Notes under the pieces: generated by a model
Told to the model about the DNA's origin: nothing
The model's input: only the letters and a program-made list of their open reading frames with translations
Database searches by the model: none
Assembly (NCBI GenBank): GCA_016700035.1
Contig: CP064998.1
Span: 727,551 to 791,550 of the forward strand
Origin: a bacterium
GTDB taxonomy: Bacteria; Patescibacteriota; Saccharimonadia; CAILAD01; GCA-016700035
Reading direction: 5' to 3'
Length of the DNA: 64,000 bases
In this document: positions 4,762 to 46,706 of the stretch, piece after piece
Layout of the letters: each line of letters opens with the position of its first letter
Numbering within the stretch: the stretch's first letter is position 1
Made by a program: the position numbers and the translations under genes

Positions 4762-5115
4762 ATTCGAATGAAATTCCTCAATAACTATAATGTATATACA
4801 TTATGCCACATCTATTCGCATAGCGCTTGTGCCATTTTAATATTTAACCGTCAATCATGAACTTTGTGACAGATACCCGCGCCACATCTCCGCGACGTAA
4901 GCTAGTTCACCTGACAGCGAACTAGCGCTTGAGTCTCCCCCTCCTATAAGAAATACCAAACAACGCACCCAGCCTACTTGAGCATCTAGTATTGGTAACT
5001 TCACGGATAATCCCGATAAGCCTACATAATTCGCCCAGGTACTTGAAATAGATTTCTGTGGCTTTAGTTATTATCAGACTCCTTCGAGGCTCAATTTTAC
5101 GAGAAAACTACCATT

Positions 5116-5146
5116 AAAAACGCCCAAGACGAGCTTGGGCGTTTTT
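5116..5146 (-). terminator. Intrinsic terminator hairpin (A5, stem cgcccaag/cttgggcg, T5). On the minus strand it sits immediately 3' of the tRNA-Glu remnant (attL), so it is probably the ancestral tRNA-Glu terminator.
   Basis: Sequence aaaaacgcccaagacgagcttgggcgttttt forms a perfect 8-bp GC-rich stem flanked by A and T runs, so it is bidirectional in form. It directly abuts the 19-bp tRNA 3'-end repeat. Confidence 0.6.
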
Positions 5147-5164
5147 GGTGACCCCACGGGGAAT
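5146..5164. repeat. attL: a 19-bp direct repeat (tggtgaccccacggggaat) identical to the 3' end of tRNA-Glu at 30474-30492, T-arm 3' half plus acceptor stem plus CCA.
   Basis: An exact 19-mer occurs at both coordinates. Flanks diverge immediately on both sides. The partner copy lies inside a tRNA next to a serine recombinase gene. Confidence 0.7.
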
Positions 5165-5259
5165 ACACTGTATAACTTCCTAAAAATGCTCGAAACAAGT
5201 TTCTGCGCGTTTTTTTTCGTTAGCGAACCCCTGCGGGGTTCGGCTCTCTCGCGAGAGCT

Positions 5260-5902: not shown

Positions 5903-6139
5903 ATGTTAGACAAGAATGATTTTCAGAAAGTAAATCTATCCAAGGATGAAGAAGCTATAGCCAAGGCTATTAACTTGTTGAAGTACCATGACCCAGAGAA
6001 CGCAACCAGGGAAAATGCAATCTCGTACCTTGAATATATGTTCACAGCCGCAGAGTGGGCCAGCAAGCAAACTGATCTTACTTTTGATGACTTTTACGAA
6101 AAATATAGGGCAGAACAAGCAAAGAAATCTGGCAGTTAA
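5903..6139 (+). CDS. Hypothetical small acidic protein (78 aa).
   Basis: ORF immediately downstream of the PLD gene on the same strand. No recognisable motif. Confidence 0.3.
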   Translation: MLDKNDFQKVNLSKDEEAIAKAINLLKYHDPENATRENAISYLEYMFTAAEWASKQTDLTFDDFYEKYRAEQAKKSGS

Positions 6140-8721: not shown

Positions 8722-9275
8722 GGGGCGGCTCCTTTCTTATCATGTATGAATGTATAGTAGGCGGCTGATTCTCGTGCAAACGTTCGTTGGCTGACAATAT
8801 TAAGTCCAACGTAGTTCATTTCCGAGATTGTCCATGCGCCAGTCTGACTATTGACGGCAATAACGTAAGCCACGTGTCCCCACTTACCGTTGTCGGACTG
8901 AAAAATCGCTCCGACAGCTGGCGTGTGATTCACTGCATAGCCATCACGAATCGCCCGATCATCCCAGGTATTAGCATCGCCCCACGTGGTTGGAATCGGG
9001 TAGCCTGCCGACAGGCGCATCGAAAATGCCCAGTAGGTACAGTTGCCCCACTCATAGGTATTGCCCGCAACTGGCCCACCCATGTAAAACCCCTGGGATT
9101 CGGCCGCTGCCAGGCTCGGCACATTAGATAGAAACGACACTACGTCCTCGCCCATGGCAAAGACGGCTGCAAACGGCAACGCCACAATAACCGCCATAGT
9201 GGCCAGCACCAGGCTGATCTGTTTTTTAACATTTCCGCCTGTCACCACATTAAGTGCGACCAGGGCTGGATTCAT
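8691..9275 (-). CDS. CHAP-domain peptidoglycan hydrolase (T4SS cell-wall hydrolase, functional analogue of VirB1/Orf14/TcpG), with an N-terminal TM helix.
   Basis: CHAP catalytic pattern GNCTYWA...GYPIP...WGDANTWDDRA...VGAIF...GKWGHVAYV with conserved Cys and His. Positioned between the VirB4 and T4CP genes. Confidence 0.7.
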   Translation of the reverse strand: MNPALVALNVVTGGNVKKQISLVLATMAVIVALPFAAVFAMGEDVVSFLSNVPSLAAAESQGFYMGGPVAGNTYEWGNCTYWAFSMRLSAGYPIPTTWGDANTWDDRAIRDGYAVNHTPAVGAIFQSDNGKWGHVAYVIAVNSQTGAWTISEMNYVGLNIVSQRTFARESAAYYTFIHDKKGAAPWTPQPISQP

Positions 9276-11032
9276 GCGTAGAGCTCCGTCGGGTCAGTGG
9301 TAATCAGCGGATGTTCTTTATCACTGGCCACAACCTTAACAGCAACGTGGTTCTGGTCGGCAATAATCAGGGCATCGCCACGCCCGCAGGTCAGCAGAAA
9401 GTTTTCCTCGTACTCACTCAAATGAAACTCGCTCGCCACATTCTTAATAGTGGTAGTGTCCTGGCGCATGAGAATTCTTAGGCTACTCTGTGAAGCGATC
9501 ACCCGACCATAGTTACTTTTGAGGAAATCATCAGCTTGCTGGGTAACAAACGATACACCGAGGTAGTATTTACGAGCCCGACGGACCAGTCCAGCAATAA
9601 AGCGGGCACTTGGTTCATGCTCTAGCAGTGACCAACCCTCATCAATCACCAACAGTCGCTTTTCGGGTTTTACTTTGACTTGGTTTTGAATGAAGTTAGA
9701 AACAATCAACATCATGATTGGCCTGAGATTAGCCGGCATATCTTTAATGTCAAAAATCACTAAACGGTTATCCAGTTTGATGTTAGTCTGTGAGTTAAAG
9801 ATTTCAGCACTGGAGCCACTAATATATTTCTCTAGCCGTTCACACAGTTGCAATTGACCAAGGCTGTGTAGTTCAGCATACAAATCTTCAAGCAGTGGAT
9901 GTTGCTTCTTAGCTTTTCTGTAGACTCGTAAGATTGCTTTATCGACCGCCGCTTTCTCACGTTTATCCAGTCCCTCCGCCATCAGGTCAATCACGGCCGT
10001 CAGGTCTTGGACGTGCTCAGCCAGGTCAGCTTTAGTGTGAAAAGTGGTTGCTAGGTCAAATGGGTTAATCTTTTGTTTGCTTTTAGCCGACAGTTTGATA
10101 TAGGTACCGTTGACGGTTTCACTCAGTCGTTTATATTCACGCTCTGGGTCAATCACCAGCACTTTCGTGCCTTGCATCAGTTGTCTAAGTATCTCAACCT
10201 TAGTGGTATAGCTTTTACCCGAGCCGGATTGAGCAAACACAATTGAATTGGCATTATGCAAGCTAAAACGATCCAAAATAACCAGCGAGTTATTGGACTT
10301 ATTCACGCCATACAAAATACCGGACTCTTGCACGAGTTCAGATGACATAAACGGAAATGTTAACGCTGCACTGGAGCTATCTAAGTTTCTCTTTTGCGCT
10401 AATTGATCTTCGCCTCTAGGCAAAATAGATTGCAAGGCTTCAAGTTGTTGGTAGCGGGCTACTTTGGAATAAAACAACCGAGCTGACATAGTTGCTTCCA
10501 GTAACTTGGTAGTTTTGTTGAGCTCCTCCAAGCTATCGGCTCGGATAGCTACGTAGATAGACATTTGAAACAGTTTTTCCTGGCCACGTTGGATTTTGTC
10601 TCTCAGTTCAATCGCCGATTCGAGCGGGTCAGTGATTTCTGAGCCAATAATCTTACCAGCTTGCATCATCGAGCGTCTGGTGCTTTCCAGTTCGGTAATC
10701 TTGCGGTGCAGTTTTGGCAGGGCGTGCAAGGCACTGACTTCATACAGATGGTAGCTAATGTCGGTATTGTGGTTGAAGTTAATGATGCTATCCAACCAAC
10801 CGGAACTGGCCGTAAATGGATAGCCAGAAATATAGATCGTCCGCATGTACACACCGTCGATCACGAGGTGGTCAACGTTTTCCTCTAGTCCAGCGTAACT
10901 AAGAGCATCAACGGCATCTTGTTCGCCAAATGCTAAGTTCAGTTCTTTTTGCTTTTCTTGCCTAGTTTTTTGGTAATTTTGCAGTGGTTCCAGCACTTTA
11001 TTGATATCAATCATCGGGGTCTCCTTTCTCAA
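9272..11032 (-). CDS. VirB4/TraC/TrbE-family conjugative ATPase, C-terminal ATPase portion (586 aa).
   Basis: Walker A AQSGSGKSYTTK. LVIDPEREY. Walker B-like RLLVIDEGWSLL. Sized as the C-terminal two-thirds of Gram-positive VirB4 homologues. Confidence 0.7.
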   Translation of the reverse strand: MRKETPMIDINKVLEPLQNYQKTRQEKQKELNLAFGEQDAVDALSYAGLEENVDHLVIDGVYMRTIYISGYPFTASSGWLDSIINFNHNTDISYHLYEVSALHALPKLHRKITELESTRRSMMQAGKIIGSEITDPLESAIELRDKIQRGQEKLFQMSIYVAIRADSLEELNKTTKLLEATMSARLFYSKVARYQQLEALQSILPRGEDQLAQKRNLDSSSAALTFPFMSSELVQESGILYGVNKSNNSLVILDRFSLHNANSIVFAQSGSGKSYTTKVEILRQLMQGTKVLVIDPEREYKRLSETVNGTYIKLSAKSKQKINPFDLATTFHTKADLAEHVQDLTAVIDLMAEGLDKREKAAVDKAILRVYRKAKKQHPLLEDLYAELHSLGQLQLCERLEKYISGSSAEIFNSQTNIKLDNRLVIFDIKDMPANLRPIMMLIVSNFIQNQVKVKPEKRLLVIDEGWSLLEHEPSARFIAGLVRRARKYYLGVSFVTQQADDFLKSNYGRVIASQSSLRILMRQDTTTIKNVASEFHLSEYEENFLLTCGRGDALIIADQNHVAVKVVASDKEHPLITTDPTELYA

Positions 11033-11642
11033 TCAGGGCGGTGTGGATGAGACTCAGGGCCGTTTCAGTCAGCGGTTGAACTTTAGCCTGAACAGGACTA
11101 TAGAAGCTGTAGAACAAATCAAGAATCTCCAAGCTACCAAGCTGGCGAGTGTGCATACCAAGCCGAGACATTCCCTTAGTCACGATGTCTATTTTGAGAT
11201 TGAGTTGCTCTTTAATTAACTCAAAGTCTGTTTTATTGTCAGCAGTGTACGGAATAATCAGGTAGAAGTGGCGGGTCAGGATTTTGTTGCTAGTAATCAG
11301 CGAGCGGATGAACTCATCGTAATTATGTAGTTGTTTTTGGTAGATTTTTTCAGTCTCACCTTTGAGGCGCTCCGCCAGATCTTCCAGGTATTTATCCATG
11401 TCAATCTCACGAGTACGAATCAGGACTTGTATGTTAGTGCCGAGTGAGTTTAAGAAATTCTCGTAGGTGTCTATGATAGCGTCCTGCTCAGTCTCACTTT
11501 TCAGCTCAAAGTTCAGTGCCGATACTTGCAGCACCACTCGGTACTGGTTGTGCGGCAAAAGCAATATACCGTCTCGTACGCCCTTAATAGCGATCTGGGA
11601 CCGAGCGCTACTTTTAGTCCTCGACTTCTGTAAGGCGAACAT
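11007..11642 (-). CDS. Probable N-terminal domain of a split VirB4 (211 aa). It overlaps the downstream ATPase ORF by 26 nt in another frame.
   Basis: 211 + 586 aa is about 800 aa, the size of PrgJ/TcpF/Orf16-type VirB4. The two ORFs are adjacent, on the same strand and overlapping. No independent motif was found in this piece. Confidence 0.4.
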   Translation of the reverse strand: MFALQKSRTKSSARSQIAIKGVRDGILLLPHNQYRVVLQVSALNFELKSETEQDAIIDTYENFLNSLGTNIQVLIRTREIDMDKYLEDLAERLKGETEKIYQKQLHNYDEFIRSLITSNKILTRHFYLIIPYTADNKTDFELIKEQLNLKIDIVTKGMSRLGMHTRQLGSLEILDLFYSFYSPVQAKVQPLTETALSLIHTALIEKGDPDD

Positions 11643-12117
11643 ATAAGGCTCCTTTCTTGGTCATTTCAAATCTTAAATTACTGCCAGGTTTGTTGATGGT
11701 TTCTAGCACTTGGGCAGCATCGTGAAAGGCTAGTTTCGGTAGAGGTGGTACCTTTGCGGCTGTCGTGCTTGTCTGCTCACTTGCATCAGTTTTTTTGATC
11801 GTATATTCTTCTCGGTAATCAGCACTTTTCTGAAATACATAGTGCCGAGGACGCAGGTTATAGCGCAGAATTGTAACCAGCCAGAAAAGCACAATCTTGC
11901 CTTTGATGCGGATAGCCAGGATGCCGGATAGAAGTGCAATCACACTCATCACCAGGTACTTATATATGTTGCCCTCCATAATAGGCGGCAGTATGACAAA
12001 TAGTCCGGCACCAACAAAGATTGGTACGATACATAACACCAGTTGAGAGAAACCCAGGTTACCCATAATCCGATCTTCTACGGTAGTAACTTGGGCGGGA
12101 ACGGCAGTGCTTCTCAT
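11614..12117 (-). CDS. VirB3/PrgI-like small T4SS membrane protein (167 aa, two TM helices).
   Basis: Two hydrophobic helices (IVPIFVGAGLFVILPP, LVMSVIALLSGILAI). Located directly upstream of VirB4, as in Gram-positive T4SS loci. Confidence 0.4.
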   Translation of the reverse strand: MRSTAVPAQVTTVEDRIMGNLGFSQLVLCIVPIFVGAGLFVILPPIMEGNIYKYLVMSVIALLSGILAIRIKGKIVLFWLVTILRYNLRPRHYVFQKSADYREEYTIKKTDASEQTSTTAAKVPPLPKLAFHDAAQVLETINKPGSNLRFEMTKKGALYVRLTEVED

Positions 12118-13604
12118 GATTTTGTCTCCTTACTTTTACTTGCTGATTGCTTGATAGCTCCATCTCGAGGGGTTGGCTTCAGGGCCTCATTAGTCGTACC
12201 AGTCTTACCGGACACCAATGTGCCTTTACGGTGTGGTGTGCTTGGGCTAGCTTCAGCACCTCTCTTGGTGGCATAACTCGCAGTCTGAGTCCGATCGGTC
12301 TTGAGTCCTTGCGGATGAGTGCCAGTGTGTGATCCAGCTGATTTCACACCACTAGTCTTACTGCCAGCTGCGCCTGCCACTGCTTTACCTTTGCCAGTCA
12401 TGTAGCTAACACCATTCATAAACTGGCTGCCGAGCTTGCGGGCATTACGTGAGCCCATGCTGACATAGCTAAACTGCATCATGACACCTTGGGTTTTGAG
12501 TAGCACCAGTACCGTAGCTAGTCCAACTACCATCGACATCAGGACATTCGGCACCTGATTATCCCCACTCGTCGCCGACATACCGGTAAACAGGGTGGCG
12601 GCCAGCATCAGTGTCACCACATGCACAAACAGCACAAAGATCGTCGTCACATAGGTCTTGATTGCCGACACCGAAAAGTCTCGGAAACTAGGGATTAGCC
12701 ACAATGCAATTACCATCGGGGACAGTACTGCACCCAGAAATAGCACGACTAAACGGCCGACGTAGTAGACCAGCAATATGACCGAGAAGATTAAAAAAGC
12801 CAGCATGACCAGCAGTGCTGCTGCACCTTGACCACCACTTTCTTTAACTACTGCCGTCAGTGTGTCCCAGACTGAACTCGCACCACTGACTTTAGTAATT
12901 GCAGTAATCAGTACGTTGGATAGTTCGATCAGAGCATCGATGAAGAAGATCGAGGTGTTGATGAGCAAGAAAGCCAGCCCTAGCCGGGGCAGCAACTTCT
13001 TGATATCGAGCTCATCGAAGCCAAATGTCGTTGCACTCATAACGTGGAAACCGAGCAGTGCCACTATCAGAATAAACAGCACATCCGTAATGCCAACTAC
13101 TGCCAACCATAGACTAAAGACCCCTGAGTTTTGCAGCATCAGGGGTGTCTCTTTCGTAAAGTAATCCAGCGCCGCAAGGAACGGCGCAGCCACCGCTTGA
13201 ATTATATTATTGAGAAATCCCGTCACCGCTTTAATTAACACTTCTACCAAGCCACTACCAACATTATCAGGTTCAATCGCTTGAAGTGTTGGCAGTGTGG
13301 CGTTATTGGTGCCCGATGGGTCACCATAAGCACCAGATAAAATCGTGGTCAGTGTGGCAGCACCAAGGACTAAGACCAGACCAATCAGGGCGTTCTTAAT
13401 AACCCGTTTGGCATTTTCCAGAGCCTCGGGATTGCCGCTGCTGGTGATGTACTGATAGCCACCATTGACCAGGAAAAAGACACAGGCGATTGAGGCCAGA
13501 CCGGCTAGCACCCGAATAGTCGGTCCAACGTAATCCCGCATTACGGTGATAGCACCCGAGGTGTCCGCCAGGATTGGCAGACTACTGTGCACGACATTAA
13601 TCAC
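12114..13604 (-). CDS. VirB6/TrbL-like polytopic T4SS membrane protein (496 aa), with a low-complexity S/T/G/K-rich C-terminal tail.
   Basis: At least six predicted TM helices. The N-terminal segment shares the motif YITSSGNPE with the upstream pilin-like protein. The C-terminal 120 aa are Ser/Thr/Gly/Lys-rich. Confidence 0.5.
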   Translation of the reverse strand: MINVVHSSLPILADTSGAITVMRDYVGPTIRVLAGLASIACVFFLVNGGYQYITSSGNPEALENAKRVIKNALIGLVLVLGAATLTTILSGAYGDPSGTNNATLPTLQAIEPDNVGSGLVEVLIKAVTGFLNNIIQAVAAPFLAALDYFTKETPLMLQNSGVFSLWLAVVGITDVLFILIVALLGFHVMSATTFGFDELDIKKLLPRLGLAFLLINTSIFFIDALIELSNVLITAITKVSGASSVWDTLTAVVKESGGQGAAALLVMLAFLIFSVILLVYYVGRLVVLFLGAVLSPMVIALWLIPSFRDFSVSAIKTYVTTIFVLFVHVVTLMLAATLFTGMSATSGDNQVPNVLMSMVVGLATVLVLLKTQGVMMQFSYVSMGSRNARKLGSQFMNGVSYMTGKGKAVAGAAGSKTSGVKSAGSHTGTHPQGLKTDRTQTASYATKRGAEASPSTPHRKGTLVSGKTGTTNEALKPTPRDGAIKQSASKSKETKS

Positions 13605-28608: not shown

Positions 28609-28818
28609 ATGGGCCTCTTTATACATGGAGGGTATATGTCGAGGCCAAAAGGTAGCAAGAACAATTCAAAACCGCTCGTTGTTGAAACGTTTTCATACAC
28701 GACCGAGCAGCGGATTACGTTGTTTGCTCACCTGATTGTCGAGAAAATACTTGAAGATCAGCGCAATGGGCGTATTTTCCTCAAAGTGATAAGGCAAGAA
28801 GATGTCCCAAAACAGTAA
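28609..28818 (+). CDS. Hypothetical 69-aa protein immediately upstream of, and overlapping, the recombinase gene. It is a candidate recombination directionality factor.
   Basis: The position is its only support. No recognisable motif. Confidence 0.25.
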   Translation: MGLFIHGGYMSRPKGSKNNSKPLVVETFSYTTEQRITLFAHLIVEKILEDQRNGRIFLKVIRQEDVPKQ

Positions 28819-30514
28819 ACCTCGCAACGGACTACTTGCCATACGGGTGTCCTCTGATAAACAGGGGCTGGACGGTGACTCACCGGAAGCTCAACGTGAG
28901 CAAGGTGAACGCTACGCCGCTACACACAATATTATTATTACCGAAACTGTCATCCTGATGGAGTCTGCCTCGCACGAAGACCAGCCAATGCAGGAAGTTA
29001 TCAACCGCTGCAAAGACAAGAGTAAAGGCATTGAGGTAGTGTTAATTAAATCTATTGACCGCTTTACTCGTGGTGGCGGTGACTACTATTCCCCCTTAAA
29101 AAGACAGCTAACCAAACTTGGAGTTGCTCTTGAGGATATGTACGGTGTCATTGGTAAACGACAAGTTAATACGTTGGAACACACTGGCTTCAAATACTAC
29201 TGGAGTGAGTTCAATCCTACGCAGAAATCCGAATACTTAGAAGCGGAACGAGCTAAAGACGAAATGCGCGACATTATGAGCCGTATGATCGGTGCCGAAA
29301 TCCGCTACACCCAGCTTGGTTACTGGATGCGCCAGCCGCCGTATGGTTTTATTAGTCAGAAAGTTGATACCAAGAATGGTAAACGCCTTATCTTGCAACC
29401 ACATCCCGAAGAATCACCGTATATGATACGACTGTTTGAGATGAGAGCCGAGAGTATTTACAGCGACCAGCAGATCGCTGATGAACTCAATCGACTTGGT
29501 TTTAGAACCCGCATCCGCTATGTGCGTGATAAATATGATCGGACCAAGATTGTCAGACAAATCGGCGGACATAAAATGACCGCTAAAATGGTTGACCGCT
29601 ACGTACACAACCCGATATATGCTGGTGTGATTAAAGAGAAATGGACGTACGATAAACCAGTCAAAGCCCAGTTTGACGGTCTGGTATTGCCAGCACTGTA
29701 TAACGCAGCTAATCGGGGCAAGTACATCATTAAGATTGACGCTCAAAACGTCGTAACGCTGTACCGCAAACAACCGCCAGCACACTTGACGAATAAGAAT
29801 ATGCACAATCCAGAGTTTCCATACAAAAAGGTGGTGACATGTTCAGAGTGCAAGAGAACATTACTTGGCAGTGCCTCACGTGGTAAAGCCGGTAAATACT
29901 ACCCAGCCTACCATTGCAGTAAGGATGGCCACTATTTCCGTGTCCCAAAGGCTGTATTCGAGCAAACCATAGATGATGTTGTCAGACGGCTTGAGATTGC
30001 CCCAGAAAAGCTAGCCGACCTTATGAGCGCTATTGAGCAAGCATGGCTTGAGAAACAAGCTCAGACCGCCCAGGACAACCAGAAAGTCCTAGAACAACGC
30101 CAGGCTATTGAAACGCAGATTAAGGCTGGAGTAGACCGCATGAAACTCGTTACCAGCAAAACGGCAATTAAATACATAGAGGAGGATATTGAGGGGCTAG
30201 AAAAACAGCTTACCCAGCTAGATGAACAACAAGCTAATAAATCGGCAGAAACGGTAGATATGGAAGTCGTGTTGCAATATGCAAGATACTTGGTGGAACA
30301 CCTAGCAGATATACTGCTTCACCTCCGTAATCCGCTCCGAAAAGCAGCCTTTTTTGGCGCTATCTTTAACGCAGTACCAACTTACGAAGATTTAGTTGGT
30401 GGAACACAAAAAAACAGCCCGATACCAGGGGTAAATGAGCTGTTTCGTATTGCGTTGTCGCCAAATCCTAATATGGTGACCCCACGGGGAATCGAACCCC
30501 GATTGCCAGATTGA
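28802..30514 (+). CDS. Large serine recombinase (570 aa). Its 3' end overlaps the tRNA-Glu gene.
   Basis: N-terminal resolvase catalytic motif LLAIRVSSDKQ, with the Ser nucleophile. Recombinase domain. Zinc-ribbon CSECKRT...YHCSKDGH. C-terminal coiled-coil. The last ~13 codons are antisense to the tRNA. Confidence 0.8.
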   Translation: MSQNSKPRNGLLAIRVSSDKQGLDGDSPEAQREQGERYAATHNIIITETVILMESASHEDQPMQEVINRCKDKSKGIEVVLIKSIDRFTRGGGDYYSPLKRQLTKLGVALEDMYGVIGKRQVNTLEHTGFKYYWSEFNPTQKSEYLEAERAKDEMRDIMSRMIGAEIRYTQLGYWMRQPPYGFISQKVDTKNGKRLILQPHPEESPYMIRLFEMRAESIYSDQQIADELNRLGFRTRIRYVRDKYDRTKIVRQIGGHKMTAKMVDRYVHNPIYAGVIKEKWTYDKPVKAQFDGLVLPALYNAANRGKYIIKIDAQNVVTLYRKQPPAHLTNKNMHNPEFPYKKVVTCSECKRTLLGSASRGKAGKYYPAYHCSKDGHYFRVPKAVFEQTIDDVVRRLEIAPEKLADLMSAIEQAWLEKQAQTAQDNQKVLEQRQAIETQIKAGVDRMKLVTSKTAIKYIEEDIEGLEKQLTQLDEQQANKSAETVDMEVVLQYARYLVEHLADILLHLRNPLRKAAFFGAIFNAVPTYEDLVGGTQKNSPIPGVNELFRIALSPNPNMVTPRGIEPRLPD

Positions 30515-30548
30515 AAATCTGATGTCCTAACCGTTAGACGATGGGGCC
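30474..30548 (-). tRNA. tRNA-Glu (anticodon UUC) with encoded CCA. Its 3' 19 nt are duplicated at 5146-5164.
   Basis: A manual cloverleaf can be drawn. Acceptor GGCCCCA/TGGGGTC. D-arm GTCT..GGAC. Anticodon stem TCAGA/TCTGG with loop TTTTCAA. T-arm CGGGG TTCGATT CCCCG. Discriminator A plus CCA. Confidence 0.75.
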
Positions 30549-36601: not shown

Positions 36602-37024
36602 TTAAGCCGAAGCTTCACCTAGTTTACGTCGGATTAATTCCAGGACACCACGAGGAGTTTGATCGGCTTTTATAAGATAATCCGCCCCCATCGACTTAGC
36701 TTTTTCAATATCATTTGGATTGTTGGAGTTGGTAAGAAAAACAATTTTAGTACGTGAAAAATCGTAGCCATCATTTTTTAGTTGATTAACCGCTTCAATA
36801 CCAGTCATCTCGGGCATATTAATATCAACCAAGGCTAGGCGTGGTTGATGCTGCTTAATTAGCGTCACTGCCTCGCGACCATTTACACCCATGGCGATAT
36901 GGTAACCAGCTTTAGCTAGCTTGACTTGATACATGCGTGAAATAAACGGATCATCTTCAACAACAACGACATCGGCCTTTTCATTGACACTCGGAACATC
37001 AGATTTATGCACTTTATCTTCCAT
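36602..37024 (-). CDS. Single-domain response regulator (CheY-like receiver only), 140 aa.
   Basis: VVVVEDDPFI...LALVDINMPEMTG...KIVFLT. The phospho-acceptor Asp is in context. Confidence 0.75.
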   Translation of the reverse strand: MEDKVHKSDVPSVNEKADVVVVEDDPFISRMYQVKLAKAGYHIAMGVNGREAVTLIKQHQPRLALVDINMPEMTGIEAVNQLKNDGYDFSRTKIVFLTNSNNPNDIEKAKSMGADYLIKADQTPRGVLELIRRKLGEASA

Positions 37025-37172: not shown

Positions 37173-39353
37173 TTACTCCGTAGCCGCCTCATCACCCACA
37201 GCACCAGTCAAATCCTCGCCCGCGGCCTTGACTGGTAACTTAAAGCCAAAGGTCGACCCCTTACCCTCTTCGCTCTCAAAAATAACTTCACCACCCTGAT
37301 CTTTCGTAACTCTACCAACTAAGAATAAGCCAAGCCCCGTGCCATCAGGGCGAGTCTTTTGAGCATTCGGTGCACGATAAAACTTTTGAAAGAGCTTGGC
37401 TTGTTCAGCCTTTGGCACACCAATACCGTTGTCTACTACCCTAAAGCTTACCCAGCCAGCATTAGCTTCGAGATAAACATCCACCTTACCACCATCTCGA
37501 GCAGTCGATGAATAATAAATTGCATTGTCCATCAAGTTCATCAAGCACTGCCTGGTCTTACCTTCGTCAATCTGCAAAATTGGCACTGGCTCTTTTGGTA
37601 CATGAAAATTAATCACCACGTGCTTCATTTCTGCCGCAGTTGCTAGCATACTAATTTCTTCCGGTAAAACTTTATTGAGATCTACATCCGTGCGCTCAAT
37701 CTTAAATTTACCAGATTGAATACGCGATACATTCAAAAGGTCATCCACTAAGCGCGTCATCCGTGTAGCGGCATCAAAAGACTGCTTGAGTGTTTCCTTC
37801 TGCTCTTTTGAAACTCGCCCAAAGTCCCCATCCATCACCATCGAAGTATAGCCCCGCACAGCCGTTAATGGCGTACGTAATTGATGTGAAGCCATCGAGA
37901 TAAACTCATCTTTGGCTTTATCCAGCTCTTTCAATTCTGCGTTGGCATGTCGCAACTCGGCCGTCGCCTGACGAACTTTTTCACGCAATGTTTCGTTAAA
38001 GCCCTGAATCTCCTGATATGAACGCGCGTTATTAATTGCAATCGCCAATTCATCAGAAATAATCTGCAAGGTCTGTACATCTTGCGAAGAGAATATATCT
38101 CCCGACTGCTTCTCCCCCAGCAAAAGGTACCCCACAAACGCCTCTCTAGTACGCAATGGAAAAACAGCCCGAACGTTGTGGCGATCAAGAATATCTCGTT
38201 TTTGGGCATCTACTACCTCATCTACCAGCGTCACACCCTTATTAAACCGTGTAAGTTCCGGTGCATGATAGAGCTGCTGGATTTTATTAGCATGGGTTTG
38301 ATAAAAAATACCATCTTCACCCATCACCACAATATTACTATTGGCTAGATGTATCTGCGCATCAAGTATTTTTAGCACCTTGGCGGAAAGTTTTTCTAAT
38401 AAAATTTCTGATGCTAATACTCGACCAATGTCTGAAACAAGTTTCTGTGGGTCGTAGCGATCTCGATAAAATACCCTGTCTGTTATCTTCTCGAAAAAGC
38501 GCCGAATAGTTGGAAAAGTAAAAGCCAAAACGACGGCCAAAACGACATTAAAGATCTGACGTGAAAGCTGGGTGGTAAGTACATTTTTTAGCAATACTCC
38601 TTGCGCCAAACCAAAGGCCAGAAAAGCGTAGATGAGAGAAAAGGCACCAATCGAGAATACGTAGGCTAGCGAGCGAGCGACGACGGCTCGGATATTGAGT
38701 AGCCGGTGACGCACAATAGCAAATGAGCTAAAGGCAACAAAAATAAGCACAAAACTGGGTCCGGTATCCAAAAAACTATTAATCCCAAACAAAATTGCCA
38801 CTGCATTAGTAAAGATAACTGGCACAAATGCAAGAATAATACCGGTAAAGACATATAAGATCTGTTGACGAAGCATACCTCTGGCTTTACGGTAGCTTGT
38901 GCCAAGTACGATTAGACCACCACCTACACATAGCAACAGATATGCCAACAGCGGGATGTAGAGTGGGCCTACGACTAGATTATTCTGGCCGGCTGTTATG
39001 GATGTGGCGTTCAAATTAGTTGGCGCCAAAAACGTAAAACTAAGCGACGCAACCGCCAAGGCAACAATTAGCCACGGTCGCTTTTTCGGACTAGGTTGAA
39101 AACTCAAGCTTAATAAGAGAAAAAATGAGGCACTCAGAACAGCGGGTATAACTGCCAGACGCGACCACAACAATGCAGACGTATCTCGTGTCGCAATCGA
39201 GGCTAAAAAATTCGTCAAAAGCCACAGACTTGCCGAAAAGTTGAAGCAAGCTAGCAGTCGGTTTTGGTAACCCTTTGAATTCGCTAGTATGACGATAAGC
39301 CCCAGCACGCCAATAGCGACAATGCTAAAGATATACAACACATTGGAAAACAT
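37173..39353 (-). CDS. Sensor histidine kinase (726 aa) with a polytopic N-terminal membrane sensor domain.
   Basis: H-box MASHQLRTPLTAVRGY. HATPase_c G-boxes VVDNGIGVP and GTGLGLFLV. At least seven N-terminal TM helices. Confidence 0.8.
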   Translation of the reverse strand: MFSNVLYIFSIVAIGVLGLIVILANSKGYQNRLLACFNFSASLWLLTNFLASIATRDTSALLWSRLAVIPAVLSASFFLLLSLSFQPSPKKRPWLIVALAVASLSFTFLAPTNLNATSITAGQNNLVVGPLYIPLLAYLLLCVGGGLIVLGTSYRKARGMLRQQILYVFTGIILAFVPVIFTNAVAILFGINSFLDTGPSFVLIFVAFSSFAIVRHRLLNIRAVVARSLAYVFSIGAFSLIYAFLAFGLAQGVLLKNVLTTQLSRQIFNVVLAVVLAFTFPTIRRFFEKITDRVFYRDRYDPQKLVSDIGRVLASEILLEKLSAKVLKILDAQIHLANSNIVVMGEDGIFYQTHANKIQQLYHAPELTRFNKGVTLVDEVVDAQKRDILDRHNVRAVFPLRTREAFVGYLLLGEKQSGDIFSSQDVQTLQIISDELAIAINNARSYQEIQGFNETLREKVRQATAELRHANAELKELDKAKDEFISMASHQLRTPLTAVRGYTSMVMDGDFGRVSKEQKETLKQSFDAATRMTRLVDDLLNVSRIQSGKFKIERTDVDLNKVLPEEISMLATAAEMKHVVINFHVPKEPVPILQIDEGKTRQCLMNLMDNAIYYSSTARDGGKVDVYLEANAGWVSFRVVDNGIGVPKAEQAKLFQKFYRAPNAQKTRPDGTGLGLFLVGRVTKDQGGEVIFESEEGKGSTFGFKLPVKAAGEDLTGAVGDEAATE

Positions 39354-39386
39354 AAACTCATTATATAGTAAAAGAATGGGGAGGTC

Positions 39387-39983
39387 TCATAAGACCTCCC
39401 CATATACTGGAGCCGAGATCATGCCCTCAGTGGCCCACGCGTAAAACGCGGGATCACAGTCATGCATATTCTTCTCAAACTCCAGCAGATCCATGATGTA
39501 GGGCGGGATTGCCCAATCATGAAAGCCGATATCGCCACATTGCTCGAAGGTAGTATGAATGGCGGTATTGAGAAACTCAGTCCTCTCTGCCTCCATCACG
39601 ATACCCCAGTGGGTTACCCCCAAACCTCGAGAAGTCTGGAAGGCTGCCCGGTACAACTCGAGTGCGATATTGGCAGATCGGCTCGCCTCAACTACAACCA
39701 CCGTACCAAGCTCCTCAAGTTGCCCCGTGTGAAAAAGTGCCATCGGGACTTCCGGATGCCAGAGCTGGCAGTCGGTAATGAATGGCGGCAAATGCCGACC
39801 GGCGCCGATCATGCGCAACGCCCCGATGCAGATGTCACCGTCAAACGCGCCGAAAACGCGGCTCTGGTCGTCGAACTGGCGGTAGTCGTAGGGGTAGTTC
39901 TCCTCGCGGAAGATCTTCTCCTCAACAGCCAGTGCGGCCTCACGCTCAGCACCCTCGACCAATCGCACCTGAATGTCGGTCAT
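39387..39983 (-). CDS. GC-rich hypothetical protein, possibly a GNAT-fold acyltransferase (199 aa from MTDIQVRL).
   Basis: GC about 60%. Fold assignment is weak. The ORF track extends it to 40136 across an upstream GC-rich run. Confidence 0.3.
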   Translation of the reverse strand: MTDIQVRLVEGAEREAALAVEEKIFREENYPYDYRQFDDQSRVFGAFDGDICIGALRMIGAGRHLPPFITDCQLWHPEVPMALFHTGQLEELGTVVVVEASRSANIALELYRAAFQTSRGLGVTHWGIVMEAERTEFLNTAIHTTFEQCGDIGFHDWAIPPYIMDLLEFEKNMHDCDPAFYAWATEGMISAPVYGEVL

Positions 39984-39999
39984 CTTGATTCCTTTCCGC

Positions 40000-40407
40000 T
40001 CAACGTGAGCGAGTCGATTTGCGCACAAAGCGCATTCGGATAGCTGACAACTTCTCTCGCATTCGGTCCACCTTCGCGGCAAGCCGCAACAGTAGACCAT
40101 GGCCCAACTGATATTTGAACACCAGCGTGAGCGCAACCATGAAGGCGATGCTGGACGGGATGAGCCACTGGGGAAAGTTACGCCCCCACACCAGCACGTA
40201 AATGTACGGTGCGAAGGTTACAACGCGGTTGTACCAGATGGCTCGCCGAAAAGCGACCTTGTCGCTGCACCGATAAGAGCGCACGAGCAAGTACCACGAA
40301 TACCATACCTGAGGCCAAGTAATGAGGTATAAAGCAATGAAAATGGCGGGGTTAACCGCATAGTAGTCGGCCCTATCTAGGAGGCCATTCCAGAAATCGT
40401 GAAGCAT
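40000..40407 (-). CDS. GC-rich hypothetical integral membrane protein (135 aa).
   Basis: Several hydrophobic, aromatic-rich helices. Same compositional islet as 39387-39983. Confidence 0.35.
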   Translation of the reverse strand: MLHDFWNGLLDRADYYAVNPAIFIALYLITWPQVWYSWYLLVRSYRCSDKVAFRRAIWYNRVVTFAPYIYVLVWGRNFPQWLIPSSIAFMVALTLVFKYQLGHGLLLRLAAKVDRMREKLSAIRMRFVRKSTRSR

Positions 40408-40481: not shown

Positions 40482-41573
40482 TTATTTGTCAAAAATTGCC
40501 CTTGGAGGCTTGAAGCCATTAAAGCCATTTGCAAGCGCATTCGTGTATGCTCCAACATCATAAAAACGCAATTTATCGCCTAATTTTAGGTCATGAGGTA
40601 GCCGCACAGAAGTTGTAATTGTATCAATACTGTCACAGGTTGGTCCCGCTAAAACATAGCTTGCCTGCTTTGTTGACTTATTCTCAAGTGCCTCAACCCG
40701 ATACTGAATGTTGCCCTGGAAGTTCATTGCTTCAAAAAGTGCATTATATGTTCCAGCGTCTAGGTAAAGCCAGGTCCCTCCACGCCGCACTGTCCGATGA
40801 ATAATACTAGTAGTTAACGTTGCCACATTTGCCACCATGAATCTTCCCGGCTCAGCGAAAACAACTGGAATTTTGAGTGAGCGAACATATGGCCTGATCA
40901 CTTTTGCTATGTCTAAGAGGCTGGGTGCCTTCATATTGCGATACCCGTAAGGAAATCCACCCCCTAGATCCAGGGCTTCTATTTCTATTCCCTGTGCACG
41001 TAGTACACCCTGTATTCTCTTCACTTTCTCAAGTGCATATTTCCACGTATTGAGCTTGAGCGACTGCGAGCCAACATGAAAACTCAGTCCATAAAAGCGC
41101 AAACCTGCCTCTTGGGCTTTCTTCACTAAAGCCAGAGCTTGTCGCTCTTCTGCTCCAAACTTATCTTGCAATGAAAATACGCTCCCACGTTCGTAAACAC
41201 GAAGACGCAAAAGCACCGAAGCTCCAGGTGCACCTTTTGAAATCTTCGAGATTTCTTCTGCAGAATCATAGGCAAAGACCGTTATACCTTTCCTATGAGC
41301 GAATTCAATGTCTCCTGGTATTTTAACCGGATTACTAAAAATTATTTCCCTTGGATCAACATCATTCGCAATTAATAGCGCTATCTCACTTTTAGACGCA
41401 ACTTCAAAGCCCGACCCTAATCCCTGTAAAGTTTTCACTACTTCCGGCATTGGATTGCTTTTAAGCGCGTATCTCAAAGCAATACCAGGTAAGGCCTTCT
41501 CAAAAACACTATAATTCTTATGGATTTTTTCTAAGTCATACGAATAATATGGAGTTTTTTCTGCAAGATTCAT
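40482..41573 (-). CDS. Fold-type III PLP-dependent decarboxylase (Orn/DAP/Arg decarboxylase family), 363 aa.
   Basis: PLP-lysine motif YALKSNP. LDLGGGFP. GPTCDSID substrate/cofactor motif. Confidence 0.7.
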   Translation of the reverse strand: MNLAEKTPYYSYDLEKIHKNYSVFEKALPGIALRYALKSNPMPEVVKTLQGLGSGFEVASKSEIALLIANDVDPREIIFSNPVKIPGDIEFAHRKGITVFAYDSAEEISKISKGAPGASVLLRLRVYERGSVFSLQDKFGAEERQALALVKKAQEAGLRFYGLSFHVGSQSLKLNTWKYALEKVKRIQGVLRAQGIEIEALDLGGGFPYGYRNMKAPSLLDIAKVIRPYVRSLKIPVVFAEPGRFMVANVATLTTSIIHRTVRRGGTWLYLDAGTYNALFEAMNFQGNIQYRVEALENKSTKQASYVLAGPTCDSIDTITTSVRLPHDLKLGDKLRFYDVGAYTNALANGFNGFKPPRAIFDK

Positions 41574-41697
41574 CTCTTCATACTCTACAATTTTCCCGAT
41601 AAAAATACTAGAATATAACTAATGTGTAGTGCTAGGCACAATAGTATTGACTATACTTAGCATAACTGTTATAATATACACATAATTCAATCTTTCT

Positions 41698-42357
41698 ATG
41701 GATACAACACAATCACGAAAAAACATTGGCTTCCCCGCAAAGCGTAGCGACTGGAACAAAACTCCAGCCGTTTTTGATGACCACACGCTTAAAATTTCCG
41801 GACACCCCGTTATGGAAGACTGGGAAGACGGCTATATGAAGCGCCTTGCCCAAATTGCAACTATGCAGGGTGGTCGAGTGCTGGAGCTTGGTTTCGGTAT
41901 GGGTATCTCAGCGGGCTACATACAAAGCTCAGAAAACCTCAAAGAGCATATAGCTATAGAATGCCACCCGGATGTGATCAAGAATGCCGTTTCTATGTAT
42001 CCTGATCAAATAGCAAGTGGCAAAATGCATCTTATGTCTGGTTTTTGGGAAGATATTACTCCACTACTTAAGGATAGTAGCTTTGACGGTATTCTTTTTG
42101 ATACGTACCCACTAACAGAAAAAGAGATTCATGGTAATCACTTCTGGTTCTTCGAAGAGGCATATCGACTCCTGAAAAAAGGCGGGGTACTCACCTACTA
42201 TTCTGATGAGGCAACTAAATTCTCAGAAAAACATCTATTGCGCCTTAAAGCTGCCGGATTTCATGATATTACTTATGAAGTAGTTGACGTCGATCCTCCA
42301 GCTGATTGTGAATATTGGCAAGATAAAACAATCATTGCTCCAATTGTAGCGAAATAG
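41698..42357 (+). CDS. Guanidinoacetate N-methyltransferase (GAMT)-like SAM-dependent methyltransferase (219 aa).
   Basis: Collinear similarity to GAMT across the whole length: GHPVMEDWEDGYM, GGRVLELGFGMGI, IECHPDV, FWEDITP...FDGILFDTYPLTE...LLKKGGVLTY, DPPADCEYW. The comparison is from memory of the human GAMT sequence. Confidence 0.6.
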   Translation: MDTTQSRKNIGFPAKRSDWNKTPAVFDDHTLKISGHPVMEDWEDGYMKRLAQIATMQGGRVLELGFGMGISAGYIQSSENLKEHIAIECHPDVIKNAVSMYPDQIASGKMHLMSGFWEDITPLLKDSSFDGILFDTYPLTEKEIHGNHFWFFEEAYRLLKKGGVLTYYSDEATKFSEKHLLRLKAAGFHDITYEVVDVDPPADCEYWQDKTIIAPIVAK

Positions 42358-46027: not shown

Positions 46028-46151
46028 TTATAAATTATAGCAAAAAAGCGTATATAAGGCGAACCTATCAAAGCCATATATTGCCCTAAAGCTAGATATA
46101 TGATATTATTGGTTGGTTTTTATTATCTTTGATCAATCACTTTTTATTATC

Positions 46152-46706
46152 ATGAAAAAACGCTTACAAATTGGTGTTATGGGTTCGGCCGCAGATCTTG
46201 AAAAAAATCAAGATTTATTTTCACTTGCCGAAAAAGTGGGTCAACTAATCGCAAAACAAAATGCCATACTAGTTTTTGGAGCCGAAAAAGACTATGACTC
46301 CCTATCTACGGCGGCATGTCGTGGGGCAAAAAAAGCGAATGGATTGACGGTTGGTGTAACATACGGTAAAGATCTCGCCACCTATGAAGATGCTGATGTA
46401 ATAATTGCTACAGGATTAGAGCGTGGAGGTGGAAGAGAATTCTCACTCGCCCTAAGCTGTGATGCTATTATTGCTATATCAGGTGGGTCTGGCACTCTCA
46501 ATGAGATGGTTGTAGCATATCAAGCCAACATACCCCTTATTGCTCTTACGGGGACTGGTGGCTGGGCCGATAAAATGGCTGGGCAATACTTCGATGGTCG
46601 TAAGCATGTGAAAATAGAGGCGGCAAAAAATCCAGAAGAAGCTGTAAATCTTGCGATAAGCCTTGCAACAAAATCAAGTAATCGTACAGAACACGAACAT
46701 TTATAA
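46152..46706 (+). CDS. TIGR00725/LOG-family Rossmann-fold protein (SLOG-like), about 184 aa from MKKRLQIGV.
   Basis: IGVMGSA...GGGREFSLALSCDAIIAISGGSGTLNE pattern of the LOG/TIGR00725 family. Confidence 0.5.
   Translation: MKKRLQIGVMGSAADLEKNQDLFSLAEKVGQLIAKQNAILVFGAEKDYDSLSTAACRGAKKANGLTVGVTYGKDLATYEDADVIIATGLERGGGREFSLALSCDAIIAISGGSGTLNEMVVAYQANIPLIALTGTGGWADKMAGQYFDGRKHVKIEAAKNPEEAVNLAISLATKSSNRTEHEHL

Follow-up and report, generated by a model that had tools for sequence, protein, structure and literature searches.

A conserved pair of decarboxylase and GAMT-family methyltransferase in Patescibacteria, probably acting within a larger gene set on an arginine-derived amine that is methylated and acylated

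The window analysed here is a stretch of 64,000 nucleotides from contig CP064998.1 (assembly GCA_016700035.1), which originates from a member of the Saccharimonadia, and all positions refer to this stretch. Two divergently transcribed genes are at the centre of the analysis. One of them codes for a fold-III PLP-dependent basic-amino-acid decarboxylase of 363 aa (DC, 40482..41573, minus strand), the other for a SAM-dependent N-methyltransferase of 219 aa which belongs to the GAMT family (MT, 41698..42357, plus strand). The intergenic region of 124 bp (41574..41697) is associated with promoter-like sites in both directions. On the MT side, a consensus scan matched 11 of 12 positions of TTGACT-17-TATAAT, with an upstream TG as in an extended -10 element (41647-41675, plus strand), and the ATG of MT is found 22 nt past this site. 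The promoter-like site on the DC side (41698-41671, minus strand) is a weaker pattern match with 9 of 12 positions.

Public gene callers start MT at Met39, which results in a protein of 181 aa. We consider the length of 219 aa to be correct because residues 1-38 are conserved throughout the family and can be aligned to GAMT. A preceding sequence-only reading of this DNA had given the same extent for the pair, the length of 219 aa for MT and the divergence over 124 bp, all of which were borne out. The larger unit around the pair, with a FeeM-like acyl synthase, a small membrane protein, a 7TM kinase and a receiver protein, was absent from that reading.

Residues 18-219 of MT align to residues 19-235 of human GAMT (PDB 3orh) with an E-value of 1.3e-42, and the match to rat GAMT (1xcj) has an E-value of 4e-41. 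The AF2 model of MT has a pLDDT of 95. Its top Foldseek matches are GAMT structures (TM 0.86-0.89, identity 40-42%), while spermidine synthase, the next structural class, is at a TM of about 0.6-0.67 with an identity of ~15%. Homologues of MT carry the Pfam domain PF27704 ('GuanidinoAc_N-MeTrfase') and have been named 'guanidinoacetate N-methyltransferase' by their source annotations. A faint NCBIfam match of MT is to polyamine aminopropyltransferase. The collinearity with GAMT over the full length, which had been proposed from the letters of the sequence, is thus confirmed, and the two segments that had been highlighted are present at residues 129-141 (FDGILFDTYPLTE) and 199-207 (DPPADCEYW).

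A residue census was made for 79 homologues. Residue E43 of MT corresponds to Glu45 of rat GAMT, and the Glu is kept in 77 of the 79 copies. We take Glu45 to be the guanidino-binding residue of GAMT, a role that has reportedly been described for the animal enzyme. Residue D135 corresponds to Asp134 of rat GAMT, and this Asp is kept in all 79 copies. Asp134 is the catalytic base of the rat enzyme (PMC12471008, PMC12842229). SAM motif I of MT is ELGFGMG (residues 63-69), compared to EVGFGMA in GAMT, and conforms to the pattern E-x-G-F/Y-G-M-G/A. The sequence YYSDE at residues 167-171 is invariant. MT thus shares full-length homology, fold, motif I and both carboxylate residues with animal GAMT (EC 2.1.1.2), and it is a member of the GAMT family rather than a generic SAM-dependent methyltransferase.

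There are also differences between MT and GAMT. Ile184 of GAMT is replaced by an invariant Glu, Gln147 by His and Tyr222 by Trp. In addition, a loop of 13 residues (C168-K180 in GAMT) is missing from each of the 79 prokaryotic copies. The backbone of L170/T171 within this loop is said to bind the carboxylate of guanidinoacetate (GAA). Deletion of the loop in all copies argues for a guanidino acceptor which does not have the GAA carboxylate.

DC was found to have both Pfam domains of fold-III decarboxylases (PF02784, E 7e-50; PF00278, E 2e-15), in agreement with its earlier assignment to the Orn/DAP/Arg type of these PLP enzymes. The motifs YALK38SNP, FH166VGSQ, GGG204-206, E241PGR, C313-D314 and GAY343 were identified in alignments, and we assume that their residues (K38, H166, G204-206, E241, C313-D314, Y343) have the PLP-related and catalytic roles of their ODC-type counterparts. 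The best PDB match is the Lys/Orn decarboxylase from Selenomonas (E 4e-62), and eukaryotic ODCs are also among the closest solved relatives. In eukaryote-type ODC, Asp332 presumably binds the terminal amine. The equivalent position of DC is F285 or Q286, and none of 18 family members has an acidic residue there, while E281, which precedes this position by one helical turn, is invariant. DC stays below the curated cut-offs for LysA (TIGR01048, 174 vs 297.9) and SpeA (TIGR01273, 49.5 vs 624.1) and also below that for nspC (NCBIfam). When the C-terminal segment of DC was compared to solved structures, the chlorella-virus ADC (Glu296) was not among the matches listed.

The association between MT and a decarboxylase was analysed across loci. 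A decarboxylase gene is found within about 400 bp of MT in 53 of 69 informative loci, with 30 cases being of the PLP type and 23 of the AdoMetDC type. Upon de-redundancy at 90%, 20 PLP-type clusters and 20 AdoMetDC-type clusters are obtained. The PLP-type genes occur in convergent, co-directional and divergent arrangement with respect to MT. Three unrelated decarboxylase folds directly adjoin MT, namely PLP fold III, AdoMetDC-like and HDC-like, the latter being represented by an HDC-family pyruvoyl decarboxylase directly upstream of MT in the two related loci L075 and L077. A PvlArgDC is encoded 1.4 kb from MT in a single locus (L090), with a transposase-like ORF in between. There are also fusion proteins, one between PLP-DC and MT (P0132) and three between MT and AdoMet_dc (L008, L086, P0131). 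The pairing of MT with a decarboxylase is not due to chance. The replacement of one decarboxylase by another between lineages makes sense only if one amino acid is the common substrate of all of them. The pair is widespread in Saccharibacteria and in other Patescibacteria; its conservation across genomes is thus established, while the earlier remark that it would be unusual for a reduced genome was mistaken with respect to rarity. There are 12 non-redundant MT clusters without a nearby decarboxylase, and some of these adjoin SET-domain proteins, which indicates that function varies within the MT family.

In the AdoMetDC-like partners the processing residues (Ser, His, Cys) are retained, and the ESH motif is present. 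The Pro which marks genuine AdoMetDC and follows ESHxxxHT(W/Y) is missing in 16 of 18 partner copies, while the AdoMetDC structures 1tlu and 2iii have it. The partners are also devoid of the motif QxxETS, which belongs to the ornithine enzymes. It has been described that AdoMetDC homologues were neofunctionalised as arginine (SpeDA) or ornithine (SpeDC) decarboxylases, that the invariant Pro is a criterion for genuine AdoMetDC, and that such a set of residues represents the SpeDA pattern (Li et al., JBC 2023; PMC10407285). Like SpeDA, the pyruvoyl partners of MT have the processing residues and are without the AdoMetDC Pro, and judged by these motifs they show the signature of an arginine decarboxylase. 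The published SpeDA and SpeDC enzymes serve in the making of polyamines, and their genes are clustered with speB, speY or speE (PMC10407285). In contrast, the MT-linked enzymes cluster or are fused with a GAMT-family methyltransferase, a GNAT and a 7TM kinase, a linkage of which there is no mention in that paper (PMC10407285).

Four further genes are encoded beyond DC on the minus strand. TM135 (40000..40407) is a small membrane protein of 135 aa with about 3 hydrophobic segments and with zero Pfam or NCBIfam matches. It is conserved with the module, being co-located with it in Saccharibacteria loci (with two copies in L075), and it is fused onto the N-terminus of acylA in L032/L035. The acylA gene (39387..39983, minus strand) codes for a protein of 198 aa from the GNAT superfamily which is predicted to be a FeeM-like N-acyl (amino acid/amine) synthase. 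According to homologue alignments it starts at ATG 39983 and not at TTG 40136, and an identical protein of 198 aa has been called in public assemblies. Its AF2 model (pLDDT 89) has FeeM (2g0b) as top Foldseek match, with a TM of 0.70-0.76 and an E-value of 1e-9, compared to about 0.5 for ordinary GNATs. Thus, acylA is predicted to have the fold that is seen in FeeM and in synthases of long-chain N-acyl amino acids. Homologues of acylA carry PF21926 and PF00583, and its match to TIGR03694 (PEP-CTERM/exosortase-associated acyltransferase) is weak (34.6 vs a cut-off of 111.95). The acyl-transfer partner in other Patescibacteria is a different GNAT (gnatB), so that the acyl group may differ there or may be acetyl. 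As homology between acylA and gnatB is undetectable by hhalign (probability 3%), we do not claim orthology of the acyltransferases across the two classes.

A terminator-like hairpin, detected by a pattern scan (39376..39403, minus strand), overlaps the stop codon of acylA and is located between acylA and the kinase gene. It has a 12-bp stem with 7 GC pairs and is followed by a T-rich tail. The histidine kinase (726 aa, 37173..39353, minus strand) consists of a sensory 7TM region at the N-terminus (HisKA_7TM, PF16927, 57.3 bits with a cut-off of 28.6), a GAF-like middle region, and HisKA (PF00512) and HATPase_c (PF02518) domains. Downstream of it is a response regulator of 140 aa which consists only of a receiver domain (36602..37024, minus strand; PF00072, E 2e-20). 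For loci of at least 7 kb, a kinase with the same architecture is found in 10 of 13 from the PLP class and in 11 of 11 from the AdoMetDC class. The kinase gene directly follows MT in L075, L092, L093 and L095 and is one gene further downstream in L082. The receiver-only regulator is conserved in L004, L029/L031 and L035, while in other Patescibacteria its place is taken by a regulator of the OmpR type, which is encoded upstream of MT. Outside the Saccharibacteria the module occurs as one co-directional string of genes for response regulator, MT, DC, GNAT and histidine kinase.

Taken together, MT and DC form a conserved pair inside a larger set of genes, whose product is probably an amine that derives from arginine and is methylated and acylated. 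The explanation that we prefer, with a probability of roughly one half, is a genuine two-enzyme unit within a six-gene module (MT divergent from DC, with TM135, acylA, the 7TM kinase and the receiver) which is devoted to arginine/agmatine chemistry. The PLP decarboxylase would convert L-arginine to agmatine, and MT would use SAM to methylate a guanidino nitrogen, which may be the internal (delta-type) one by analogy with GAMT and Rmt2. Alternatively, MT might act on arginine ahead of decarboxylation. The FeeM-like synthase could N-acylate the free primary amine, which would result in an amphiphilic compound of the N-acyl-N'-methylagmatine type at the membrane, where TM135 might be the partner or the anchor of the synthase. 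The 7TM kinase and the receiver may sense the product or may control its synthesis. The protein families, the conserved catalytic residues and the coupling in the genomes with its fusions are direct observations of this analysis, and what is inferred are substrate, product, sequence of the steps and function of the kinase.

A guanidino amine of the methyl-agmatine type had already been suggested in the sequence-only reading, and neither of the two outcomes named there as refuting, a generic methyltransferase and a pair that is not conserved in other genomes, was obtained. This idea has gained support from four sides, as the carboxylate-binding loop of GAMT is gone from every copy, the AdoMetDC-like partners are SpeDA-like, a PvlArgDC is found near MT in L090, and PLP-DC lacks Asp332 of ODC. 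It is weakened by the nearest solved relatives of DC, which are Lys/Orn decarboxylases, and by the HDC-family enzyme which occupies the decarboxylase slot in L075/L077. Both points also count against our preferred explanation, as no rule assigns DC to arginine and histidine is the only substrate of HDC-family enzymes known to us. The HDC fold is also that of pyruvoyl arginine decarboxylase, so that a change of substrate in the L075/L077 branch is plausible. Also to be counted against it are the PvlArgDC evidence, which comes from one locus with a distance of 1.4 kb and the intervening transposase-like ORF, and the source of the acyl donor, as CPR bacteria to our knowledge generally lack fatty-acid synthesis.

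Several other explanations have to be weighed. DC might be an ornithine or lysine decarboxylase, with MT making N-methylputrescine or N-methylcadaverine, and this would be polyamine modification rather than guanidino chemistry. Such a function would fit the best solved relatives of DC, including the eukaryotic ODCs; ornithine decarboxylases exist among AdoMetDC homologues (PMC10407285), and the carboxylate pair E43/D135 of MT could in principle bind ammonium. We nevertheless consider it unlikely, as the position of Asp332 is not acidic in DC, the AdoMetDC-like partners carry ESH and not the ornithine-type QxxETS, nearly all MT copies keep the exact guanidino-binding and catalytic residues of GAMT, and the decarboxylase near MT in L090 is a PvlArgDC. 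It is very unlikely that the methyltransferase-fold protein is an aminopropyltransferase which uses dcSAM from the AdoMetDC homologue, with PLP-DC supplying putrescine in Saccharibacteria. The ranking of spermidine synthase behind GAMT in the structural comparison (TM about 0.6-0.67), the 23 loci with an adjacent or fused AdoMet_dc-family gene, and the faint NCBIfam match would agree with this function. However, 16 of 18 AdoMetDC-like partners lack the invariant Pro of AdoMetDC, sequence identity to spermidine synthases is only ~15%, and the AdoMetDC homologue is replaced in other lineages by a PLP decarboxylase, an HDC-type enzyme or PvlArgDC. Moreover, MT shares the motif I sequence G-F-G-M-G with GAMT and has a Met in place of the Asp of GGGDGG, which in aminopropyltransferases binds the amine of dcSAM. 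The function stated by automatic annotations, a true guanidinoacetate N-methyltransferase which makes creatine, is in accord with the 40-42% identity to animal GAMT and with conservation of the catalytic Asp, but it is extremely improbable. The 13-residue loop, reportedly the binder of the GAA carboxylate, is missing in 79 of 79 copies, and an amidinotransferase adjoining MT was not found among the window neighbours or in the loci. A 360-aa ORF in L091 had been guessed to be one but has zero Pfam matches and was dropped. The conserved partner is instead a decarboxylase, an enzyme without a role in creatine synthesis, so that the substrate of MT is probably not guanidinoacetate. For hundreds of proteins from prokaryotes, the automatic label 'guanidinoacetate N-methyltransferase' probably names the wrong substrate.

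MT might also be an Rmt2-like protein arginine methyltransferase whose target is the kinase, the regulator or a protein of the ribosome, with the decarboxylase as a mere neighbour. The title of PDB 1khh calls GAMT a template for protein arginine methyltransferases. MT directly precedes the 7TM kinase, without a decarboxylase, in L092, L093 and L095, it is located beside or fused with SET-domain proteins in L087 and P0149, and it is found beside the EF-Tu/ribosomal operon in L047, L048 and L061. Such a function may apply to the clades without a decarboxylase. For the family as a whole it seems decidedly unlikely, as three unrelated decarboxylase folds adjoin MT, a fourth is nearby, and covalent fusions with MT exist for two kinds, which is hard to explain unless both enzymes share a small-molecule pathway. 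Finally, histidine could be the shared substrate, with histamine being N-methylated and then acylated, as might be suspected from the HDC-family decarboxylase directly upstream of MT in L075 and L077. There is little chance of this, as the support comes from two related loci only, MT keeps the guanidino-binding residues of GAMT, and we know of no fold-III or AdoMetDC-family enzyme which has histidine as substrate.

Parts of the module resemble known systems. Yeast Rmt2 has a GAMT-like domain and is a delta-N protein arginine methyltransferase, which methylates the internal guanidino nitrogen of the arginine side chain. It provides a precedent for arginine-type acceptors; its target is a ribosomal protein, and it is not known to have a decarboxylase partner. 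That a decarboxylase and an N-acyl synthase can work jointly has a precedent in the PEP-CTERM set (TIGR03694 and the PLP decarboxylase TIGR03099), to which acylA and DC have weak matches far below the curated cut-offs. The module differs from this set by the lack of an exosortase context, and the known systems have neither a GAMT-family methyltransferase nor a 7TM kinase. CqsA/CqsS and LuxM/LuxN are pairs of an autoinducer synthase and a multi-pass membrane kinase. The likeness to these is in layout only, with genes for small-molecule biosynthesis, a polytopic sensor kinase and a regulator as neighbours, while the enzymes are unrelated. The literature searched on GAMT in CPR, on methylated or acylated agmatine, and on HisKA_7TM yielded no description of this module. 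Saskemycin contains N-methylagmatine units, and its cluster was found via an arginine methyltransferase of the SznE type, which is from an unrelated family.

The genomes of Patescibacteria (CPR) are tiny and encode very few biosynthetic pathways, and there is next to no knowledge of the small molecules which these bacteria make or sense. The module is compact and widely conserved, with a decarboxylase being maintained beside the GAMT-family methyltransferase despite swaps to other folds, and its neighbour is one of the small number of sensor kinases which these genomes encode. If the proposed product is real, guanidino-amine N-methyltransferase would be a new activity in the GAMT family, which would suggest that creatine synthesis in animals derives from a guanidino-amine activity by gain of the carboxylate-binding loop. 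Agmatine would have a fate outside of polyamine synthesis, and there would be a testable candidate for a ligand, or for a regulated product, of the uncharacterised HisKA_7TM kinases. A more speculative and rather doubtful extension is a self-contained signalling circuit of Patescibacteria, Saccharibacteria included, in which a lipid-like signal of the methylated, acylated agmatine type would be made by decarboxylase, methyltransferase and N-acyl synthase, would be exported or inserted into the membrane and would be read by the adjacent 7TM kinase and regulator. This would amount to an autoinducer-like system, or to one for host contact, in ultra-small episymbionts and would provide the first ligand for HisKA_7TM.

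Further membrane proteins are associated with MT in individual loci and, together with the fold of acylA and its fusion to TM135, they speak for an acylated product at the membrane. A membrane domain is fused to MT in L009/L063. A search for TM135 similarity in the membrane domain at the N-terminus of the L009 fusion yielded zero HMM matches, and the domain has a sub-threshold Pfam match to MtN3/SWEET-like proteins. An EamA transporter is encoded inside the cluster in L012.

The divergent gene pair described by the sequence-only reading, a fold-III PLP decarboxylase (PLP-DC, 363 aa, 40482..41573, minus strand) and a GAMT-like methyltransferase (MT, 219 aa, 41698..42357, plus strand) separated by 124 bp, agrees with the ORFs of the window. 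MT is collinear with guanidinoacetate N-methyltransferase (GAMT) over essentially its full length, as had been claimed (human GAMT, E 1.3e-42; rat GAMT, E 4e-41), and the two peptide segments quoted in support are both there (residues 129-141 and 199-207). A model of MT, obtained with AlphaFold from 44 homologues, has a pLDDT of 95, and its top structural matches are GAMT chains (TM 0.86-0.89, 40-42% identity). Public gene callers start MT at Met39, which results in a protein of 181 aa and cuts off window positions 41698-41811. The 219-aa reading is correct, because residues 1-38 are conserved throughout the family and align with GAMT; a promoter-like site, near-consensus and of the extended -10 type, stops 22 nt short of this start codon. 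The window belongs to a Saccharibacteria genome, and close relatives of its MT are carried by Saccharibacteria MAG contigs.

Loci around MT homologues were collected from species genomes (11), from metagenomes (80, by MT-derived patterns only) and by exact protein look-up (8), and all neighbours of the window MT were searched in them by tblastn and profile HMMs. In 69 loci MT has flanks of 1.3 kb or more at either side; 53 of these encode a decarboxylase no further than about 400 bp from it. In Saccharibacteria this is the same fold-III PLP enzyme (30 loci, reduced to 20 clusters by 90% de-redundancy). The two genes are found in convergent, co-directional and divergent arrangement and thus their adjacency has outlived repeated rearrangement. 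Other Patescibacteria (Paceibacterota, Falkowbacteria and others) have a pyruvoyl enzyme of the AdoMetDC family (PF02675) instead (23 loci, 20 clusters). In two loci the slot directly upstream of MT is occupied by an enzyme of the pyruvoyl histidine decarboxylase family (PF02329, E 2e-38) whose ORF overlaps MT (L075, 7184-8005; L077, 930-1733). A pyruvoyl arginine decarboxylase of the PvlArgDC family (PF01862, E 1e-61) is encoded in L090 (916-1458, minus strand), 1.4 kb from MT, with a transposase-HTH-like ORF in between. Fusions also occur. MT is fused to an AdoMetDC-family domain in three cases (L008, L086, P0131), while the 600-aa protein P0132 consists of an N-terminal fold-III PLP decarboxylase (36% identical to that of the window) and a C-terminal MT (54% identical). 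Genomic evidence for a common pathway can hardly be much stronger than Rosetta-stone fusions combined with non-orthologous displacement involving several unrelated folds, and we assign a probability of about 0.9 to MT and the decarboxylase acting in one pathway. Known enzyme families are joined in a combination which has not been described so far and which is widely conserved. In the open-access papers searched we found no description of a GAMT homologue in CPR bacteria or of an agmatine N-methyltransferase, and nothing on N-acyl agmatines or on what HisKA_7TM kinases bind as ligand.

In an alignment of 79 full-length MT copies with rat and human GAMT, Asp134 (GAMT numbering), the catalytic base of GAMT (PMC12471008, PMC12842229), is invariant. 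Glu45 is retained in 77 of the 79 copies and motif I is identical to that of GAMT, so that MT is not a generic SAM-dependent methyltransferase devoid of GAMT substrate residues. Komoto et al. 2004 are said to have found the guanidino group held by Glu45 and Asp134, and the carboxylate of guanidinoacetate (GAA) reportedly held by the backbone of L170/T171 in the loop C168-K180. These 13 loop residues are absent throughout the prokaryotic family, which also differs constantly from GAMT at Ile184 (an invariant Glu), Gln147 (His) and Tyr222 (Trp). By sequence, fold and catalytic residues MT is thus a member of the GAMT family, but it lacks the sole feature tied to GAA, the loop with its reported role in carboxylate binding. 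With Glu45 and Asp134 kept and this loop gone, MT should act on a guanidino nitrogen of an acceptor that lacks the carboxylate of GAA. Databases call MT homologues "guanidinoacetate N-methyltransferase", a name that probably gives the wrong substrate, since the family fails in this GAA-linked feature.

The window decarboxylase has both domains of the fold-III family, which confirms its earlier assignment, and the standard PLP and catalytic motifs are in place. At the position of ODC Asp332 there is no acidic residue, while an invariant Glu occurs one helical turn before, and the protein scores under the curated cut-offs of LysA, SpeA and NspC. As judged from these features, it is not a canonical ODC, LDC or DapDC. 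In one MT-linked PLP-DC subclade (e.g. L013, L020, L022, L028, L036, L037, L088) the ODC "CD" motif has Gly in place of Cys360 (GPTGD), whereas the window clade retains GPTCD. For the pyruvoyl partners, Li et al. have described that AdoMetDC homologues were repeatedly turned into arginine (SpeDA) or ornithine (SpeDC) decarboxylases, that genuine AdoMetDCs always have a Pro following ESHxxxHT(W/Y) whereas SpeDA has lost it, and that SpeDC proteins carry a distinct motif (PMC10407285; ornithine domain QLIETS…GHF versus genuine ESH…HSWPE in Figure S5). The MT-linked enzymes show (I/M)(V/M)ESHISIHTY(S/E/A), where solved AdoMetDCs have HTWPE. Because the Pro is missing in 16 of 18 and the ornithine-type motif was found in none of the 18, they fit the arginine decarboxylase pattern. 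Arginine is the best common denominator of the pyruvoyl partners, the PLP-DC and the PvlArgDC enzyme; the histidine decarboxylase family enzyme of L075/L077 is the one observation not easily reconciled with it.

The most serious alternative to a guanidino acceptor is methylation by MT of a diamine derived from ornithine or lysine. That the MT fold represents an aminopropyltransferase might be considered, as spermidine synthases follow GAMT as the second structural class matching the model and as the pyruvoyl partner is of the AdoMetDC family. This is disfavoured by the loss of the AdoMetDC Pro from the partners, by a Met in MT at the position of the aminopropyltransferase motif I Asp, and by the exchange of the AdoMetDC homologue for amino-acid decarboxylases of other folds. 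Creatine synthesis proper is likewise disfavoured, given that the loop is deleted and that no amidinotransferase was found among the window neighbours or in the loci. MT clades without decarboxylase, which are found beside the EF-Tu operon in some CPR, beside or fused to SET-domain proteins, and in DPANN archaea, may act as protein arginine methyltransferases; such a role leaves the MT-decarboxylase fusions unexplained.

Having come through the two checks proposed with it, on GAMT substrate residues and on conservation of the pair, the interpretation that the product may be a methylated guanidino amine such as methyl-agmatine is strengthened. It is incomplete in that the module exceeds the pair. 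Downstream of the decarboxylase, on the same strand, follow a 135-aa membrane protein of no known family (TM135, 40000..40407), a 198-aa protein (acylA, 39387..39983), a strong hairpin with T tail (39403-39376), a histidine kinase of 726 aa whose sensor region is HisKA_7TM (37173..39353) and a single-domain receiver (36602..37024). This order recurs in L002-L006, L018, L029/31, L032/35 and L097-99. The conserved start of acylA is the ATG at 39983; a mechanical listing has a TTG at 40136 (249 aa), which is 51 codons too long and overlaps TM135 (39984-40136). Sequence matches of acylA are weak (TIGR03694; E about 0.2-0.4 for FeeM and further GNATs), while PF21926 and PF00583 are present on its homologues. 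Its model (pLDDT 89) shares the fold of FeeM, a long-chain N-acyl amino acid synthase (TM 0.70-0.76, well over ordinary acetyltransferases). In L032/L035, TM135 is joined to the N-terminus of acylA as one protein.

Outside Saccharibacteria the module has a fixed order: OmpR-type regulator, MT, pyruvoyl decarboxylase, a GNAT-superfamily protein (gnatB, roughly 220-247 aa, matching GphF/CurA-type GNATs and N-acetyltransferases) and 7TM kinase. A comparison of acylA with gnatB detected no relationship. Among loci of at least 7 kb, the kinase occurs in 10 of 13 with a PLP enzyme and in all 11 with an AdoMetDC-family enzyme. It immediately follows MT in L075, L092, L093 and L095 and is one gene further downstream in L082; in L075 the histidine decarboxylase family gene is also accompanied by two TM135-like genes and a weak GNAT. 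Further variants have an EamA transporter (L012) or MT fused to a membrane domain (L009/63). Some versions have an additional methyltransferase inserted, a member of the NNMT/PNMT/TEMT family (L008, 7041-7871, PF01234 with E 3e-21; L076 and L084, about 4590-5210 and 7515-8135), which suggests further N-methylation of the amine.

PLP and pyruvoyl decarboxylases require a free alpha-amino group, and therefore the acylA step would have to follow decarboxylation, with acylA acylating the newly freed primary amine; methylation could occur before or after decarboxylation. We give the scheme from arginine via methylagmatine to an N-acyl product an even chance.

The MT family is moderately large, with 91 representatives at E <= 1e-30 and 569 at E <= 1e-10 (50% clustering). 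A rough distance tree places animal GAMT, which differs from the prokaryotic family by the 13-residue insertion, as a long branch nested among prokaryotic sequences. The creatine enzyme may accordingly be derived, having gained the loop. Lone copies without decarboxylase or kinase occur on DPANN-archaeal-looking contigs with MCM- and TBP-like neighbours (L033, L041, L045, L056, L062) and in CPR, divergent from an EF-Tu/S10 ribosomal protein operon (L047, L048, L061). Their first motif, MQRWETNYM, is nearer to animal GAMT. Two SET-domain ORFs are located immediately 5′ of MT in L087 (1068-2214) and a SET domain is fused to MT in P0149, which hints that one clade may methylate proteins. On a 635-kb actinobacterial contig with an EspB/PPE-type gene (L014, 2964-7711), MT is the last gene of an operon-like string after a carbamoyltransferase and two TauD-family oxygenases, with an APH phosphotransferase and a thioesterase upstream. 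This resembles a natural-product cluster whose substrate would be an arginine-derived guanidine. In L091 (3-3375) the context differs: ahead of MT are a class I/II aminotransferase-fold protein, an ORF of 360 aa without match in a Pfam search, and a second class-I methyltransferase.

Four genes from MT, the window codes for a SLOG/LOG-like protein (46113-46706, plus strand; PF18306 LDcluster4, E 1e-31) with no evident link to the module; its weak match to PF03641 "Possible lysine decarboxylase" does not reach the gathering cut-off and gives no evidence of a decarboxylase. In the region 28802-30548, a 570-aa ORF, the N-terminus of which resembles that of a serine recombinase by eye, overlaps with its 3′ end an opposite-strand tRNA-Glu gene (30474-30548). 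An integrated element may have its edge here; upstream, at about 6100-13600, large minus-strand ORFs follow one another.
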